This document shows, in pieces, positions 36,001 through 48,000 of a stretch of DNA of 64,000 nt. The stretch's first letter is position 1; every line of letters begins with the position of its first letter. The position numbers were made by a program. Source of the stretch: Lentisphaeria bacterium (lineage in GTDB: Bacteria > Verrucomicrobiota > Lentisphaeria > JABSQK01 > JAWLHB01); assembly GCA_041690595.1 (NCBI GenBank), contig JAWLHB010000015.1:1-64000 (forward strand), read 5' to 3'.

Positions 36001-39000
36001 GCGCATGCCGCTCCTTTTCGTCAGTGGGACCAACGACTTTGCCTATCCACTCGACAGCCTTCAGAAGAGTTACCGGCTGCCTGCCGGGCCGGTGCAGCTC
36101 TGCATTCGCCATGAGATGCCCCATGGCCACATGGAAGGATGGGCGCCGGAGGAGATCGCCTGGGGTGCCGATCAGCATCTGCGTGGCGCCACGCCCCTCC
36201 CCGAGGTGGGCCCGATGCGAACTTCCGGCCGCCAGCTCGAAGCGAGGATCGTGCGCGGGAAGGTGAGTCGTGGCTGGCTTCTGCATACCGCCGATACCGG
36301 GCGCTGGCAGGATCGCAAATGGCAGCAGTCACCCGCCCGTCTGGAAGGGAAGAGGGTTGTCGCGGAGCTGCCGGAAGCGGCCACCGTCTTCTACCTGGCC
36401 ATCGAGGATGAACGCGGCGCGTGGATCAACACCCCCCACGCCTGCGCCGATCGGTGACTGGAGGTCAGACGGCGTTGCCGAAAAGATCGTAGGGATCCGC
36501 GCCGGTGATCTCCACCTCCACGAAACCCTTTTCATACGCATCGTCCGGGCCGGTGAAGTGCACCAGGTTGTCGATATCCGGCGCATCCGCATAGCTGCGG
36601 CCGACGAACTGGCCTGGCGCGGTTGGCCCCTCGACAATGACCTTCATGCGCGTACGGACCAATCCTTCGTTGCGGGCCAGTGAGATCTCCTGCTGCAACT
36701 GCATCAGCCGGTCGCGCCGTGCTTCGGAAACAGCCTGGGGCACTGGCTTCGACTTGAGGTTGAGCGCTGGCGTCCCTTCCTCCGGTGAGTAGCAGAAGAC
36801 CCCCATGCGCTCGAAACGAAACTCCCGTACGAAGTCGTACAGCTCTTCGAAATCGGCATCGGTCTCGCCCGGAAAGCCGACGATGAAGGTGGTGCGGATG
36901 GCGATGCCGGGTACCCCCTCGCGCAGCTTCCACATCAGCTCCCGCGTGGCGTCGGCAGGCATGATGCGCCCCATCGTCTTGAGCATGGCAGGCGCGATGT
37001 GCTGCAGCGGCATGTCGATGTAGGGGACAAGGTGTGGCGACTGGGCCATCTGGGGGATCAGGTCAACTGGAAAGGTGCGCGGGTAGGCATAGAGAATGCG
37101 CATCCAGAAGTCGCCGTCGATGGCATCGAGCTGCGTGAGGAGGTCGCGAATGTTGGCGCCATCCTGGCGATCGGTGCCGTAGCGGGTCGAATCCTGGGCA
37201 ATCAGATTGATCTCGCGAACGCCCTGCGCGATGAGCCCGCGGGCTTCCTTGACGATGGACTCGGTCGAGCGGCTCCGCTGTTTACCGCGGATCATGGGGA
37301 TGGCGCAGTAGGTGCAGGTGTGGTCGCACCCTTCGGCAATCTTGATGTAGGTGGTGTGCGGCGAGGTAAGCAGCAGGCGCGGCGTCTCGGCATCGTAGAC
37401 ATAGGTGGGTGCCCCGTACTGATCCCGTACTTCCTCCGGCTTCTGATGATTGAGCAGTGCCTTGACCTTGCGCACGATCTCCGGCTCATCGTCGAGCCCC
37501 ACAAAGAGGTCGACCTGCGGGAATTTGCGGCGGGCCAGCGGCAGATCTCGCTGCGGCAGGCAGCCCGTGACCACCACGCGACGACCTCGCCGTGCCCGTT
37601 TCCACTTCAGGGCCTGGCGGATCTCTCCTTCCGATTCCTTGCGCGCGGCATTGATGAAGGAGCAGGTATTGATCAGAGTGATATCGGCCTCCTCCTCGTC
37701 GTTGGTCATCAGGAAGCCGTCGAGGGCGAGATTGCCGCACATCGCTTCCGTGTCCACCAGATTCTTGGGACACCCGAGGGTGATGATGCGGACGGAAGGT
37801 GGGGCGGCAGTCTTGGGCATGGGTGCTCCGGGAAGGGGGAAATCGTCGAGAGTAAAGGGCGTACTATACCCCCCACTTCCTCATGCCGCCAGATGCCGGC
37901 TTCAATAGCTCCCGGGCCGGGCGTTGCCCAGAGACGCGGGGACGCGGGGAGGCAAACATCAGGGAGCCCACGGGGATCGATCTCGACACTTTCGAGTTGC
38001 TCGATCAGTTCGATTCATTCGATCACGTCGACAGCCTCCCAAGGCAGGGCAATTTGGGGCAATGGCCCCCTCCCTCATTGTCGGACCTGTCGAGGCTGTC
38101 ACCAGTGGAATTAAGTTCGCGCGGAGGGGGGACTCCCACACTGTGGCAGGGGACGTCCACCCATGGCCGCTTGCGGGGGTGGGGGCGGGCGGTTACTCTT
38201 TGTGGTATGAACGACCTGTTCGCGTATGGCACGTTGATGTGTGAAGAGATCATGCTGGCGGTTACCGGCTGCCGCCCGCGGAGTATGCCTGCCGTGCTGG
38301 AGGGGTTCCGTCGCGGTCGGATCCGCGGCGAAAGCTACCCGGGGCTGGTGGCCGCGGCGGGTTGCCGGGTGGAGGGCATCCTCTACCGCGACCTTTCAGC
38401 AGACGGGTGGGAGCGGCTCGACCGCTTCGAAGGGGAGATGTACGCGCGCCACACGGTCGACGTTCAGCTGCCTGATGGCACCATGGTCAGTGCCATCACG
38501 TATCTGGTTCGGCCGCGGTTCCTGGGGCTGGTAGAAGCGGCCGAATGGGACTTTCAGGCCTTTCTTCAGCGTGACAAAGCACGCTTTGAGGCGGACTATC
38601 GCGGCTATGACCAAGTATAGAGGCGCCAGAACCATCCGCTTCCGTAACATCGCATCCGAATTCGGAGTACATGCCGGAAGCCCCCCGGATGGGCAAGCTC
38701 GGAAGAACTCCTGTTAGTCAATTTTTTCGCATAATTTTGGACTGGCATGGCGAAAGTTGCGGAGTGTGGCATTGTAGTTGCGCTGTGCTTAACAAAACCC
38801 GAAACGGGGTTTAACTGCATGCGGCCTGTGTCAGCGGCGGAAACCAGAAAATCGGTTGCTGGCTCAGGCAAACGTGGAACGGTAAGTGGTGCGTCAAATA
38901 CCGATTGGGGTGGGGACGATACCAGAACCGCGTAAACACAACGTTTAGAGGACGCTCAAAATGGCCAACTTGTCAGAACTGTACGAAGCAATTCTCAAAG

Positions 39001-45000: not shown

Positions 45001-48000
45001 GTCCTTCCCATGCGAGCCGGCGAGAATCTCCTCTGCGTCAAGGTCGTTGCCGGCCTCTACGATCAGTGGTCGATTTGTTTTGGGAGACCCGAGGCTGACG
45101 TCGAGAGCCAGGTCGAGCGGGCGCCGATGCCCGAGGCCTTGCCGGTCACCGGCGGTCCAAGACGGGACTATGCCGCGGCCGGATTGCGCATCGAGCAACG
45201 GCCGGGTCCCGTGCCGGTCGCGGAAGCGAAAAATCGCGAAGCGGTCATGGCGGCGCATGGTGTGCAGGCGCACTGGATCGGCATCGTCGACCACACGGGC
45301 AGCCCCTACGCGGAGTCGGCGGCTCTGCCTCCCGGCGAGCATGCTCGGCCCGGCAATCGCGAGCTGTTGCGCGCGCAGGTGGAGGAGATTCATGCCGCCG
45401 GCATGGCCGCCGTCACTTGGTTTCCTGGCAATCACTGCAAGAGCGCCGCTGAGCTGCACCCAGAATGGTGCACGAAGCTCTTGCACGATGCCGGTCACGG
45501 CGGCGAAGCCAATTACTGCCTCTGCATCAACTCCCCCTATGGCGAAGCGCTGACCGACTTCGTGCTCGAATCCCTCGACTACTATGGGCTCGATGGCTTC
45601 TGGTTCGACGGCACCTCCTGGTCGCACCCCGGAACCGTCGGTTGCGTCTGTTCCGCATGCGGAGCCGCCTTTCATAAAGCGACCGGTCTGGCCTTGCCCC
45701 AGGCTGTCGACTGGGAGCAGGAAGCGTTTCGGCAATGGGTGGCGTGGCGGTACCGCAGCTACATGACCTTCTGGGGCCGGCTGGCCAGTTGCGTTCGCCG
45801 GAGCTTCCCCGGGGCACGCATCGTCGTCAACCATCGTCACCGCCTCTGCCATGGTTGGGAGATGGGGATTCCCATCGACCGTTATGAAGCCGATGTCGTG
45901 GCCGGGACCGAATCGCAGCACGACCCCTTCATCAGTGCCTTTCACAGCCGACTGCAGCGCGCCTACCGGCAGCCGGAAGCTGAAGTCTGGATGGGGTTGC
46001 ACCACTATTTCGACCGCAACGAGCTCTGGCCGCCGGCCATGCAGCCTCTGCACCGCTATCTTCATCATGCCCTTGCCTCCATGACCGCGGGATGTGTCCC
46101 CTCCTTCGGCACTCCGCACGATGCCGAGCTGCTTGCGGATGGCTACGCGGTTCTCGCCGCCGCGGTCAATCCACGGCTCGACTTGACTGGTGGCGACTCG
46201 CTGGCACATGTGGGCCTTCTCCTCAGCCAGCAGAGCGAAACCTTCTACTTCAGTCGCCGCACTCCAGGCGTGTTCCCCCGCGACTACTGGTATTCCGTCC
46301 TTGGCTGGCACCACCTGCTCATGCAGAACCAGATAACGCAGGAGCTGCTCTTCGATGCCGATCTTACCGATGCGGGCCTGTCCCGCCATCCTGTCGTGAT
46401 CGCGGCTCAGGCAGTTGCCCTCAGCGATCTCCAACTGGCCATCCTGCGGCGCTATGTCGAAGCTGGCGGAATCCTGATCACCGATGGTCTGCTCGGCGCC
46501 TGCGATGACTGGGGCACGCCGGTGCCGGGGCAGCGCGCGAGCGATCTGGTGATGCCATCCGCGCTCCCCGCGCCCGATGCGTCACTGGCCAATGATGCCG
46601 GTGGCTACCGCATTTCCGAGCTGGGCAAAGGCAGGATCATCCAGCTTGCCGGCAATCCCGGCCTGGCCTTCCTGAACAACCACAGTCCGGCTCTGTCGGA
46701 GAGCCTCGGGACGCTCCTCCGTCACACGGCGTCGCCACAGCTTCTGGTGGAGGGGCCATCGCGTCTGCACGTGGCGCTCTACCGGCAGCGTGGGCGACTG
46801 TTGCTGCACCTTCACAACTTCGTGGCCTGGAGCGATGGGCTGGCCTACCCGAACCCGGCAATGAGCGCACCACCCATTGCCCGCGATGTCCTGGTGCGAT
46901 TGCGAATGCCGGTGACGACGGCTCGCGCGCTGGTGCCCGACTGTTGTAAGATCGATGCGGAGGCGTCAGCGGATGGCCTCACCATCCGCATACCGCGCCT
47001 CGACTGGGGCCTCGTCATCGAAGTGATCTGATGCCGGCCGGGCGCTGGGGGGCACTGTCCAGAGAAGCGCACACTTCTTCGCTTGCGGAGTGAATGGGCG
47101 GCGCCCGGTGGCATCAACGGCTTACAGCTGTAAAGCTGTTTGATCAAGTTGATGGCTTATTGCCAATGGCAATCTGCCCGTTATTGGGTGTTTGCAGCCT
47201 CGAATCGCCACCTGGATCACCGGTTGGCACAGTGCCTGCTATTATAGCTATGCATCAAGGTAGCGCCGCGTCGGCGGTGTATGAAGCGCAGTACAAATCA
47301 GTAGTTACGCGAGGAGAGAGGATATATGCATCTATCACGATTGGTTCTTATGGGGCTGGTACTGGCTGGTCTGGCGGGAGTCGGCATGATAATATTCGGC
47401 GCTCAGCAGTTCAGGCCGCAACCTGGTCTGGAACAGCATGGGCCTTTTACTACCTTGCTCCACAGTGCCCGGCACGCCGATGCCGCCACGGACCTCCTCG
47501 CAAGCGCGGTGAAGGAGCTGACACTGGATTCTGTCCCGGCCGCCAGACCGTCGGTTTCCGATGATGCCACCATTTTCCTGCTCGAAGATCGCGACACGTT
47601 CCTGATCGCGGTTCGGAAGGAAATGCAGAAGCTGGAAGAGCAATTGACAGTCCTCAACGGCCGCATCGAGGACACCGACTCCGTCAACGGCTTGGCATTG
47701 GCAGAATCACGTGGCGCCGTCAACTCGCAGATATCCCGCTTGCGGCAGAAGCTCAGTCTGGCGGACAAGGTCGACGACGCAGGGTGGAAGGCGTTTGCCA
47801 AGGAACTGGATGGACTTCTGGACGGCATTCGTAAGACTATGACTACCGGGGAATTGAACAAGAGCCTGGCCAGTCGCGGATAATATGAAGCCCGGCCGGA
47901 GTCGGCACGGGATTACATACGGAGTACGGCTGTTGTCGTGGAACAACGGCCGAAACCTCACCAGAAGCCCGGCCTCATGTGGTTGGGCTTCTGCGTTGGG

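Follow-up and report, generated by a model that had tools for sequence, protein, structure and literature searches.

A stand-alone corrinoid protein, its activase and a URO-D-fold protein in a glycosidase operon of a Lentisphaeria bacterium: a possible hub for methyl transfer in glycan catabolism

Organization of the corrinoid protein operon

The window, i.e. the whole stretch of 64,000 nucleotides that was analysed, contains five same-strand ORFs in the order CP–RACo–g30–g31–g32 (Table 1). ORFs, Pfam matches and computed folds confirm the operon of a corrinoid protein, an activase, a distant URO-D-like protein and a GH42/GHL6-like hydrolase placed at C15:38961-47031 by the initial annotation. 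Since the four intergenic gaps measure 35, 14, 86 and 70 nt, a single transcript is argued for. The start of g32 was inferred from translation to be the ATG at 44557, with the ORF open from a TTG at 44317.

Table 1. Genes of the operon and the evidence for their assignment
Gene	Position	Strand	Description	Evidence
CP	38961..39596	+	stand-alone corrinoid (B12) protein, 211 aa	B12-binding_2 + B12-binding
RACo	39632..41263	+	ATP-dependent reductive activase for corrinoid proteins, 543 aa	Fer2, Raco_middle, RACo_C_ter
g30	41278..42363	+	URO-D/MtaA-fold protein, unnamed widespread family	structure prediction, Foldseek, hhalign
g31	42450..44486	+	GH42-like three-domain putative glycoside hydrolase, 678 aa, unclassified family	AF2 + Foldseek
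g32	44557..47031	+	GHL6/GH42M-like large putative glycoside hydrolase, 824 aa from ATG	sub-cut-off Pfam matches

CP matches B12-binding_2 (1.5e-25) and B12-binding (1.7e-31) and carries the motif D-L-H-D-I-G, while TIGR02370 is reached with 209.7 bits, slightly below its cut-off of 215.3, and the best named model is of the MtgC type. Eight proteins of the genome match PF02310, namely the CP of the window, MetH (1230 aa), a MerR/CarH regulator and five others, which are of the radical-SAM type since they contain CxxxCxxC and lack DxHxxG. CP is thus the only free one of the eight and, as had been claimed, the sole stand-alone corrinoid protein found in the genome. RACo is recognized by Fer2, Raco_middle (2.2e-45) and RACo_C_ter (1.7e-64), with NCBIfam matches of the AcsV/RamA type below their own cut-offs, and gives no match to RACo_linker, unlike a second RACo copy on contig C5.

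The two downstream genes are glycosidase-like. g31 has no Pfam match, and its AF2 model (pLDDT 90.6) finds GH42 beta-galactosidases, a fucosidase (6tvk) and a GH164 mannosidase as best Foldseek matches (E 1e-22 to 1e-17, TM ~0.6); C118, E147-D148, C160-x-C162, H165 and E298 are invariant. The g31 family is multi-copy across the class and occurs also in genomes without a RACo or URO-D match. For g32, GHL6 (33 bits, 8.1e-08; cut-off 35) and Glyco_hydro_42M (18.4 bits, 0.0016; cut-off 25.8) match below threshold, and NCBIfam gives no match.

The layout is not conserved, even inside the same taxonomic order: of 16 loci with CP in relatives, two have RACo next to it and none has g30, g31 or g32 there, and relatives of g31 or g32 are absent from all 80 g30-homolog loci.

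g30 belongs to the URO-D/MtaA fold and is predicted to dock on CP

g30 has at least 1926 homologs and no sequence match in Pfam (including URO-D), NCBIfam or PDB. Its AF2 model (pLDDT 94.9) finds HemE and MtaA (4ay8) as best Foldseek matches, with TM 0.60-0.65. The g30 family, present at five places in the genome, aligns with 18 URO-D paralogs in hhalign at a probability of 96.7% and an E of 4.7e-10, so that the kinship of a five-member family proposed earlier (98%, 3e-13) is upheld with slightly different values. In this alignment H266 and D268 of g30 fall on the H-x-C of the paralogs, H266-L-D268-G standing in place of the H-x-C-G of MtaA.

A complex model supports docking of g30 on CP: it scores 0.85, against 0.18 for the best of three controls. 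Among solved complexes 116 of 157 come up to that mark, among mismatched pairs only 2 of 215, benchmark counts that hold only roughly here because own alignments were used for the model. Contacts agree by at least 95% between runs, and the pLDDT of the partners is at least 92. Elsewhere, the setting of g30 homologs is methyltransferase clusters, their neighbours in the 80 loci including URO-D (18), RACo (9), DUF1638 (8), CP (7), MtaB (7) and S-methyl_trans (4), and RACo is present in 32 of 32 genomes with the g30 family in the class sample described below.

URO-D paralogs in glycan-degradation loci

In a six-frame search 64 of 81 candidates matched PF01208, and an additional URO-D gene was seen during neighbourhood inspection (C8:210480-212015), so that the expansion reported initially stands, the count there being 67. 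A single match, C50:44752-45771 (445.7 bits), is recognized as HemE, in line with one true hemE. The H-x-C-G motif retains its His in 50 and its Cys in 35 of 66 alignment rows, close to the earlier counts of 49 and 34; Asp replaces the Cys in 23 paralogs, and the full MtaA zinc triad (H/C/C, including the distal Cys) is found in only 4 of 63. One paralog, C21_61763, in which LHICGN and GC are retained, aligns with MtaA from end to end (E 5.7e-18).

The glycan context of the paralogs is real. Their neighbours are mostly sulfatases, GH20/38/123/28-like enzymes, a fucosidase, sialidase-like proteins and sugar-type regulators (AraC_binding/cupin, GntR-PBP3, LacI), with GH78 rhamnosidase also among them and the sugar-acid genes MR_MLE, SDR and GFO_IDH_MocA frequent; no aromatic-ring pathway genes were seen in the examined loci. 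A GH123-like/URO-D/sulfatase/URO-D locus on C8 and a glycyl-radical enzyme flanked by two URO-D genes on C9 were found as described before. The ‘oxygen-free’ chemistry proposed at first is questionable, with genes for PhyH, an O2-dependent dioxygenase, in the same operons as some paralogs. Since the genome in addition encodes HemE and a light sensor, an anoxic lifestyle is not established.

Linkage of the paralogs to corrinoid proteins across relatives

Among 121 genomes of the class, RACo occurs in 50 of 52 with a non-HemE URO-D and in 8 of 69 without one, counts that are a reading of result tables and in which related genomes are non-independent samples. In each of the ten URO-D-rich genomes of this sample (at least 40 first-look URO-D candidates) RACo is accompanied by exactly one free CP, and both are absent from two large genomes, of 6.8 and 7.3 Mb, that belong to the same order and have HemE at most. 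At the genome level the co-occurrence of RACo and a free CP with URO-D genes is strong, which makes the corrinoid link firmer than in the initial annotation, and it could be driven by a few canonical MtaA-like members.

The paralogs were also compared with 56 loci of relatives, counting homologs that lie no more than 5 kb from CP, RACo or DUF1638 with a coverage of at least 70% and taking at least 40% identity as close. Ten of 63 paralogs have homologs of 42-61% identity in such positions, with the motif types HxCG, HxDG, DxDG and CxDG; among the Cys-less ones are C26_89896 (DTDG, 61%), C21_28316 (DSDG, 52%), C2_10287 (CSDG, 58%) and C1_171692 (HSDG, 42%). Another 22 have only matches of 23-35%, and for 31 none of the homologs near CP at these loci qualifies. 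Together with the co-occurrence and the g30–CP model, the ten paralogs support the view that the family belongs to the corrinoid-linked methyltransferases. Corrinoid use by the roughly 50 other paralogs, and with it the stronger claim that all of them feed one CP, is conjectural, and the rarity of the full zinc triad counts against it.

These numbers also bear on the possibility that most paralogs work without a corrinoid, e.g. as decarboxylases that need no cofactor or as TIM-barrel enzymes of another kind with sugar acids as substrates, and that only a few canonical MtaA-like members, perhaps together with g30, use CP. No cofactor is required by HemE, the family's founding member, and the lost zinc ligands, the Asp replacements, the 31 paralogs lacking CP-adjacent homologs, the adjoining sugar-acid genes and the extreme ratio of ~64 enzymes to one CP all point the same way. 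However, Cys-less types are among those with close homologs in CP/RACo/DUF1638 operons, g30 is modelled to dock on CP although it is itself H-x-D-G, and CP and RACo are kept in every URO-D-rich genome sampled, so that this explanation appears unlikely.

In the relatives, an AraC-family regulator is found at 16 of 19 CP-adjacent URO-D operons, and glycan or sugar genes (RGL11, GH123, DUF4838, CBM9, SASA, BNR, RhaA, UxaC, GH4) at 11 of the 19. A CP-RACo-GH38-LacI operon lies beside two sulfatases in one genome (G115), and another has URO-D-CP-RACo-MTHFR-Pterin_bind (G024); CP adjoins S-methyl_trans in G114 and is located downstream of a B12 riboswitch and a TonB receptor in G041.

A possible methyl-transfer hub

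We see about an even chance that the operon is the hub of a network that transfers methyl groups by way of a corrinoid in the service of glycan catabolism; this would be a plausible variant of corrinoid methyltransferase systems. The single CP would cycle between Co(I) and methyl-Co(III), and RACo would regain Co(I) with ATP and one electron after accidental oxidation. As a URO-D-fold methyltransferase docking on CP, g30 could be imagined to load or to unload it, in the corresponding direction of transfer, while the two GH42-like glycosidases of the same transcript might set free the sugar that the system goes on to process. Of the 60-odd paralogs in glycosidase/sulfatase loci, many would be substrate-specific methyltransferases, each under its own local regulator, loading the common CP with methyl groups whose donors derive from carbohydrates and are most likely O-methyl sugars. 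The one CP, whose sharing we infer, probably serves dozens of such scattered enzymes.

The methyl group could leave to tetrahydrofolate via a stand-alone pterin-binding methyltransferase (Pterin_bind), encoded on C9 and followed by formate-THF ligase (FTHFS), or alternatively to homocysteine via the stand-alone S-methyl_trans on C11. MTHFR+DUF5981 is encoded on C89, DUF1638 is likewise present, and one TonB receptor gene has a cobalamin riboswitch upstream; tblastn found no MTTB homolog in the genome.

That O-methyl sugars specifically are the donors is a tentative reading, which we hold to be rather doubtful, and alkyl methyl ethers are worse substrates than aryl ones for Co(I) attack. If true, a B12 hub would remove methyl groups from sugars, and we know of no description of this reaction. 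A corrinoid-dependent system with other donors, i.e. methoxylated aromatic aglycones from glycosides (flavonoids, lignin, algal phenolics) or methylated sulfur, selenium or nitrogen compounds, has a smaller probability still. In the accessible part of the literature aryl methyl ethers are the substrates of all characterised URO-D-family O-demethylases, MtaA, the nearest relative with a solved structure, has a thiol as its substrate, the GH78 neighbours would suit flavonoid rutinosides too, and for mlp clusters a part in methyl-sulfur or methyl-selenide metabolism is suggested in the available text (PMC10418091). By contrast, sulfatases, glycosidases and sugar-type regulators dominate the neighbourhoods, which lack aromatic-ring genes where examined, and 60-odd specificities would match glycan diversity better than aglycone diversity. 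Just as improbable is that the pterin-binding protein and S-methyl_trans make up, with CP and RACo, a split, MetH-like module of methionine/C1 housekeeping, the two glycosidase genes lying next to CP-RACo-g30 by chance: although the stand-alone methyltransferase genes, the CP settings in G114 and G041, the unconserved layout, the g31 relatives without any corrinoid system and a CP common to methionine synthesis and demethylation in aerobic marine bacteria (PMC12478193, in its accessible part) would fit, a split methionine synthase is unneeded since full-length MetH is encoded, a glycosidase next to CP-RACo recurs independently in G115, the URO-D-CP-RACo operons of relatives adjoin AraC regulators and CAZymes, and the short gaps argue for one transcript.

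Comparison with known systems

The proposed hub shares with the O-demethylases of anaerobes a URO-D-superfamily methyltransferase, a ~210-aa CP with DxHxxG, a RACo-type activase and the THF branch (pterin-binding methyltransferase, MTHFR, FTHFS), which in G024 forms a single operon. The corrinoid O-demethylases of Acetobacterium, Moorella and Desulfitobacterium consist of three or four components, namely MT I (such as OdmB/VdmB/MtvB), the corrinoid protein, MT II and the activating enzyme. There, one CP serves each MT I and the substrates are aryl ethers, whereas here ~64 candidate MT I genes face one CP, the substrates are presumably carbohydrate-derived, MT II lies outside the operon, the MtaA-type Cys ligands are missing in g30 and most paralogs, and the host is no acetogen but a glycan degrader of the PVC group with heme synthesis and dioxygenases. 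The methylcobamide:coenzyme M methyltransferases MtaA/MtbA/MtsA (PDB 4ay7/4ay8) resemble g30 in fold (TM 0.62-0.65 to 4ay8) and, in the case of MtaA, C21_61763 over its full length, but this genome has no methanogenesis or CoM context, the H/C/C triad is rare and Pfam URO-D misses g30. In marine Bacteroidota, a cytochrome P450 6-O-methyl-D-galactose demethylase removes a sugar methyl ether in algal glycan use, likewise among CAZyme genes; it needs oxygen and NAD(P)H, releases formaldehyde, and is unrelated in fold and cofactor class.

Type 1 mlp clusters, as far as the accessible text describes them, combine CP, RACE and several MtaA-like genes, lack a THF methylase, and are compact and reported only from obligate anaerobes (73% Firmicutes), with a suggested role in methyl-sulfur/methyl-selenide metabolism (Kountz and Balskus, PMC10418091). 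The system described here is alike in its several MtaA-like genes, CP, bacterial RACE/RACo activase and absence of a THF methylase from the cluster; both are widespread in bacteria, with a function that is putative in either case. They differ in that here the methyltransferase genes are dispersed over glycan loci and the hub operon contains glycosidases. MtgBCD of the aerobic bacterium Ruegeria pomeroyi, where two pathways, as the available part of the report describes (PMC12478193), have a core corrinoid protein in common along with a pterin methyltransferase that works in both directions, is a precedent for a hub CP beyond strict anaerobes, although its donor enzyme is an MttB-family glycine betaine methyltransferase, of a family without a tblastn match here.

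Corrinoid Protein and Activase

The operon at 38961-47031 comprises five ORFs on the plus strand, separated by 35, 14, 86 and 70 nt (table below, where the start of g32 is placed at ATG 44557). The corrinoid protein CP, encoded first, consists of an N-terminal B12-binding_2 domain (Pfam, 1.5e-25) and a C-terminal B12-binding domain (1.7e-31), the architecture of MtaC, MtbC and MtgC. The base-off/His-on motif DxHxxG is found in its translation as G-D-L-H-D-I-G-K, and D99, H101 and G104 of this motif are invariant across 22 CPs. In NCBIfam, CP scores 209.7 bits with TIGR02370, short of the cut-off of 215.3, and lies far under the cut-offs of the MtgC, MtbC and MtaC equivalog models. 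By its domains CP belongs to the methyltransferase-cognate corrinoid family, yet it is the equivalog of no named corrinoid protein. It is 68-72% identical to the CPs of three loci with g30 homologs (two from Thermoflexales/Anaerolineae, one from Chthonomonadales), while within its own class identity is ~50% to most CPs and 74% to that of genome G041.

The reductive activase RACo matches Fer2 (6e-08, [2Fe-2S] ferredoxin), Raco_middle (2.2e-45) and RACo_C_ter (1.7e-64, ASKHA) in Pfam, by which no RACo linker domain was detected. The second of the two RACo genes in the genome, on contig C5, is flanked by genes for a SAM methyltransferase and a metallo-beta-lactamase-fold protein, has no CP nearby and is followed ~5 kb downstream by ArsM-like and ACR3 genes. 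CP had been described in the initial annotation as the only free corrinoid protein of the genome, and this held, since the remaining PF02310/PF02607 matches are a full-length MetH (1230 aa), a MerR/CarH regulator and five radical-SAM-like proteins with CxxxCxxC and no DxHxxG.

An Rfam scan of the window returned zero matches, so that no riboswitch is present at the operon, and promoter and terminator scans gave site numbers no higher than those for shuffled sequence. Among public sequencing runs no RNA run is listed, and only a small fraction of the sampled words is present in the DNA runs. In the flanks (33236-38620 and 47975-52106), the upstream side carries genes for a 673-aa heparinase II/III-like protein, a 379-aa AXE1-like esterase, a GGACT-domain protein and, on the opposite strand, a MiaB-like radical-SAM methylthiotransferase; a 642-aa ketoacyl-synthase-like protein and a chemotaxis receptor are further flanking genes on the minus strand.

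Features of the operon and related loci elsewhere in the genome (C, contig; L, extracted locus; positions without a contig refer to the window)
Feature	Position	Strand	Length	Content or gene order
CP	38961-39596	+	211 aa	B12-binding_2 cap and B12-binding Rossmann domain, D-L-H-D-I-G motif
RACo	39632-41263	+	543 aa	Fer2, Raco_middle, RACo_C_ter
g30	41278-42363	+	361 aa	no Pfam, NCBIfam or PDB sequence match
g31	42450-44486	+	678 aa	no Pfam or NCBIfam match
g32	44557-47031	+	824 aa	GHL6 and Glyco_hydro_42M, each sub-cut-off
Second RACo	C5:159532-161418 (L001:7533-9419)		628 aa	full-length, linker domain present
HemE-like gene	C50:44752-45771			full-length PF01208 match
Extra URO-D copy	C8:210480-212015			PF01208
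MtaA-like paralog	C2:98990-100708 (L105:5991-7709)	-		URO-D, C-terminal thioredoxin_3 domain
Paralog locus	C8			GH123-like / URO-D / sulfatase / URO-D
Paralog locus	C1			GH38 / URO-D / URO-D / LacI
Paralog locus	C45			URO-D / URO-D / GH5 / GH78
Paralog locus	C9:92101-96556 (L130:6102-10557)			URO-D / glycyl-radical enzyme / URO-D
Paralog locus	C17			GHL6 / URO-D
Paralog locus	C21			sialidase-like / URO-D / sulfatase
Paralog loci	C21:27109-28951 (L176), C5:172887-174926 (L118)			divergent AraC, then PhyH-URO-D pair
DUF1638 fusion	C47:29852-32668 (L102:4853-7669)	-	938 aa	DUF1638, hydantoinase/oxoprolinase ASKHA ATPase domains
Pterin-binding gene	C9:213661-214740, pair to 216542 (L099:8662-11543)			pterin-binding methyltransferase-like, formate-THF ligase
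S-methyltransferase	C11:120072-123464 (L100)			cobalamin riboswitch, TonB receptor, divergent homocysteine S-methyltransferase

Fold and Predicted Docking of g30

Pfam assigns g30, the third gene product, to no family at E up to 0.01, PF01208 (URO-D) included. The g30 family, which is large, well conserved and unnamed, contains at least 1926 proteins (E ≤ 0.001 among 8000 scored candidates), and the 120 best matches listed have 49-66% identity with g30. Among the matches listed, named homologs come from Armatimonadota, Chloroflexota, Planctomycetota and one cyanobacterium, and all annotations read "hypothetical" or, oddly, "trimethylamine corrinoid protein 2". In an alignment of 25 sequences T158-D159-x-H161-P162, Y230-x-P232-S233-x-D235 and H266-L-D268-G-P are invariant. 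A Foldseek search of the PDB with the AlphaFold model (pLDDT 94.9, pTM 0.91) returned HemE or MtaA for all of the top ~25 matches (E 6e-10 to 1e-06), with a TM of 0.60-0.65 to the best ones, namely uroporphyrinogen decarboxylases and MtaA (4ay8), the methylcobamide:CoM methyltransferase. In addition, hhalign of the g30 family against 18 URO-D/MtaA-family paralogs of the genome gave a probability of 96.7% (E 4.7e-10) and paired Y-H-L-D-G of g30 with H-S-C-G of the paralogs. On the predicted structure, g30 is a URO-D/MtaA-type TIM barrel at the fold level; of the MtaA zinc-ligand set, H-L-D-G replaces H-x-C-G in g30, and the distal Cys is not conserved.

A modelled complex of CP and g30 scored 0.85, compared to 0.18 for the best of three controls. 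In reference sets, 116 of 157 solved complexes and 2 of 215 mismatched pairs attain this mark; as own alignments were used for the modelling here, both counts apply only approximately. The runs agreed in at least 95% of the contacts, with a partner pLDDT of at least 92, and the model supports binding of g30 to CP. CP contributes its invariant P60-E61 loop, its DxHxxG region and its S-A-L-L-T-T-T region to the modelled interface, and g30 the near-invariant helix P173-Q-Q-x-C177-x-D179.

Within the genome, the g30 family occurs in five places by six-frame search and in three by hmmsearch over crude ORF calls; the relatives on C6 and C19 adjoin DUF4838 or GH123-like giants. Outside the class, g30 homologs belong to methyltransferase clusters: in 80 such loci, URO-D is found near 18, RACo near 9, DUF1638 near 8, CP and MtaB near 7 each and S-methyl_trans near 4, and typical gene orders are S-methyl_trans / URO-D / DUF1638 / RACo / URO-D / g30 and g30 / MtaB / α/β-hydrolase. 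In four loci from Thermoflexales, Roseilinea and an Anaerolineae MAG (L003, L005, L008 and L023), MtaB directly follows the g30 homolog, no CP lies within 8 kb, and in three of the four an alpha/beta hydrolase follows MtaB. These four loci hint that g30 may act on the unloading side of a route for methyl groups from methanol or esters. Neither MtaB nor MTTB was found in the present genome by tblastn with the proteins of relatives.

Glycosidase-Like g31 and g32

The model of g31 (pLDDT 90.6) aligns with GH42 β-galactosidase structures over ~780-800 columns (Foldseek, TM ~0.6, E down to 1.6e-22), and the Paenibacillus α-L-fucosidase 6tvk, a GH151 enzyme, and a GH164 β-mannosidase fit about equally well. 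The predicted fold has the three-domain GH42 architecture. C118, E147-D148, C160-x-C162, H165 and E298 are invariant in the g31 family and may correspond to the Cys cluster and the catalytic glutamates of GH42. By sequence, GH42 membership is not reached, with no Pfam match for g31 and sub-threshold GHL6 and Glyco_hydro_42M matches for g32. The nearest Protein Atlas clusters of g31 are unnamed, and the closest named ones are GH-like. Since the g31 family is multi-copy in the class and present in genomes without a RACo or URO-D match, it is seen as an ordinary glycosidase-like family outside the corrinoid machinery, and was not retained as an indicator of that machinery.

URO-D Paralogs and Their Glycan Context

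The initial count of 67 URO-D genes is about right: a six-frame search with PF01208 gave 64 matches, to which one extra copy on C8 and the five g30-family places are added. The claim of a single true hemE also stands, as only the C50 gene is HemE-like by its PF01208 score (445.7 bits, the next best reaching 195). At the MtaA zinc position, a table of 66 rows (63 paralogs and three g30-family members) contains HxCG in 31, HxDG in 11, DxDG in 10, HxHG in four, HxC[STA] in three and other motifs in seven. MtaA binds zinc through the H-x-C-G motif and, close to its C-terminus (G-C), a distal Cys. With the position of this Cys fixed through alignment of paralog C21_61763 to 4ay7, it is kept in only 4 of 63 paralogs; C21_61763 has all three ligand positions. 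A search for a third conserved ligand in the HxCG group found no position with 70% conservation. The best MtaA-like paralog, on C2 (193.6 bits), has F-V-C-G instead of H-x-C-G and is neighboured by sialidase-like and KdsB/KdsA-like genes.

For 11 paralogs, drawn at random with a seed from the 59 otherwise unexamined, the neighbours were annotated with Pfam. Five of the 11 loci have a CAZyme or sulfatase gene within two to three genes (GH20-like, sulfatase, α-L-fucosidase, GH42M-like and GH28). In three others such neighbours are limited to regulators of sugar type or oxidoreductases (GntR-PBP3, AraC, GFO_IDH_MocA, PhyH), and three are uninformative. The targeted loci (see table) agree with this random sample. 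Among them, the gene order previously noted on C8 and the glycyl-radical enzyme between two URO-D genes, located on C9, were both recovered on neighbour annotation. The C9 enzyme (786 aa, PFL-like and Gly_radical) has DSDG-type URO-D genes on both sides, followed by a gene for an ADP-ribosylglycohydrolase-domain protein; glycyl-radical enzymes also occur near the CP operons of two other genomes (G060 and G101). The pairing of PhyH, a 2-oxoglutarate dioxygenase, with URO-D places an O2-dependent enzyme in the operon of a putative corrinoid methyltransferase.

Distribution in Relatives

In a sample of 121 genomes of the class, at least 85% complete, non-HemE URO-D genes occur in 52 genomes, and RACo is found in 50 of these 52 vs. 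8 of the 69 others, read from a table in which G020 and G038 count as HemE-only and the relatives are not independent. In all ten genomes with at least 40 first-look URO-D candidates (40 to 117), RACo is present and the number of free CPs is exactly one; these genomes cover eight family codes, including that of the present genome, and their CPs are of the window type (~190-204 bits). Likewise, RACo is present in 32 of the 32 genomes that carry the g30 family. Two large genomes (6.8 and 7.3 Mb) from the order of the present genome have HemE at most and neither RACo nor free CP, indicating that genome size alone does not account for the co-occurrence.

The usual layout in less expanded relatives is URO-D-CP-RACo-DUF1638(-URO-D), and DUF1638 accompanies CP/RACo operons in relatives. 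The present genome has two DUF1638 occurrences, one of them fused to a hydantoinase-type ATPase on C47, and the fusion could be a further ATP-dependent corrinoid-related factor. In 19 loci of relatives, for which 93 of 117 candidate neighbour proteins were annotated, an AraC-family regulator, mostly with a cupin sugar-binding domain, is found in 16, glycan or sugar genes in 11 (rhamnogalacturonan lyase, GH123, DUF4838, CBM9, SASA esterases, sialidase-like, RhaA/RhaB/RhaD, UxaC and GH4) and glycyl-radical enzymes in two. Genome G024 has a complete demethylase-to-THF operon, URO-D-CP-RACo-MTHFR-Pterin_bind. In G115 (4.3 Mb, 42% GC), a CP-RACo-GH38 alpha-mannosidase-LacI operon lies beside an AraC gene and two sulfatase genes (L096, G115:C1:2227067-2246900) and provides an independent case of a glycosidase co-transcribed with a corrinoid shuttle. 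The GH38 enzymes of this genome and G115 are 34% identical, a suggestive bond that was not counted as evidence, and a 314-aa ORF past the GH38 gene of G115, considered as URO-D, is by sequence a LacI-type regulator.

In the URO-D-rich relatives CP is mostly an orphan: in 16 CP loci, RACo is adjacent in two, and g30, g31 or g32 in none. This is the look expected of a shared carrier, and equally shows that the window operon layout is unconserved. Conservation of the operon synteny was rejected on the same 0/16 and on 80 g30 loci, of which none has a g31 or g32 relative.

A Possible Shared Methyl Shuttle

Sugar methyl ethers, such as 6-O-methyl-galactose, 2-O-methyl-fucose and -xylose or 4-O-methyl-glucuronate, block glycosidases and central catabolism, and the sole removal route known to us is the O2-requiring P450. 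Our tentative reading, which we regard as possible rather than probable, is that the one CP acts as a methyl shuttle common to dozens of locally regulated, substrate-specific URO-D-fold demethylases of sugar methyl ethers from algal, plant and microbial glycans. The system would be cobalamin-based and O2-independent, would include the Cys-less H/D-x-D-G types and the g30 family, and would recur in several PVC glycan-degrader families with one CP per genome. In the mechanism that we find most likely, local regulators would turn on a glycan locus, the glycosidases and sulfatases of the locus would set the methylated sugar free, and its URO-D-fold enzyme would move the methyl group onto the Co(I) form of CP. 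Methyl-CP would be unloaded to THF, followed by MTHFR and FTHFS to yield formate with a gain of ATP, or alternatively to homocysteine, while oxidised CP would be mended by RACo. The window operon would thereby represent the hub plus one module, g30 with g31 and g32, in which g30 could load CP (MT I) or unload it (MT II). Computation establishes the domains, the folds, the uniqueness of CP, the co-occurrence and the CP-adjacent homologs, and the docking of g30 is modelled. We infer which way the methyl group moves, what part g30 plays, that CP serves most paralogs and, in particular, that O-methyl sugars are the substrate.

An alternative, which we regard as unlikely, is that most paralogs are corrinoid-independent enzymes. 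The paralogs were blasted against all ORFs of at least 150 aa in 56 CP/RACo loci of relatives. Ten of 63 paralogs have a homolog (42-61% identity, at least 70% coverage) within 5 kb of CP, RACo or DUF1638, namely C2_99626, C17_101052, C21_61763, C1_121634, C1_202987, C51_38660, C1_171692, C2_10287, C26_89896 and C21_28316; of the others, 22 match at no more than 23-35% and 31 are without a match in these loci. Because the ten span HxCG, HxDG, DxDG and CxDG, loss of the motif Cys does not equal loss of the corrinoid link.

Chemically, cleavage of alkyl methyl ethers by Co(I) demands strong activation of the leaving oxygen, which MtaB achieves for methanol with zinc. A different donor is conceivable, and CP could be fed by aglycones or else by methylated compounds of sulfur or selenium; the latter are proposed for the mlp clusters (PMC10418091). 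We consider this quite unlikely for the present genome. A housekeeping role of the CP module, as a system resembling a split MetH with accidental glycosidase adjacency, is improbable, as the genome encodes a full-length MetH.

The proposed sugar demethylation need not require anoxia, since PhyH genes lie in URO-D operons and both HemE and a CarH light sensor are encoded in the genome, beside a glycyl-radical enzyme flanked by two URO-D genes. MtgBCD provides a precedent for a hub CP in an aerobe (PMC12478193).

Corrinoid three-component methyltransferase systems are a known kind; new are the inferred substrate class, the Cys-less types, the unnamed g30 family and the many-to-one carrier layout. 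Corrinoid-dependent sugar demethylation is not described in the full-text literature covered, which leaves aside subscription journals and supplements, nor are URO-D expansions in glycan loci, including by term search in a preprint on Kiritimatiellia synteny and a paper on fucoidan, both from 2026. If true, the shuttle would supply a step so far lacking in the turnover of glycans in sediments and guts, connect the breakdown of polysaccharides with B12 demand and with C1 metabolism, and give a function to very many genes annotated as "uroporphyrinogen decarboxylase family" or hypothetical, with at least 1926 in the g30 family alone. The layout of many enzymes with one carrier would be a new organisation of corrinoid methyl transfer.

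Possible Methyl Sinks and B12 Supply

Of the parts of an O-demethylase system, CP and the activase lie in the operon, while a candidate MT II is encoded on another contig: on C9, a stand-alone pterin-binding methyltransferase-like gene is followed 27 nt on by formate-THF ligase. An MTHFR+DUF5981 gene of the type in the G024 operon is located on C89. A stand-alone homocysteine S-methyltransferase gene is found on C11, and a cobalamin riboswitch (78.8 bits) precedes the TonB-dependent receptor gene divergent from it. In G041, of the same order, one locus (L083) has the gene order Pterin_bind / riboswitch / TonB receptor / CP. The gene next to the C9 pair, on the other strand, encodes a PhyH protein.
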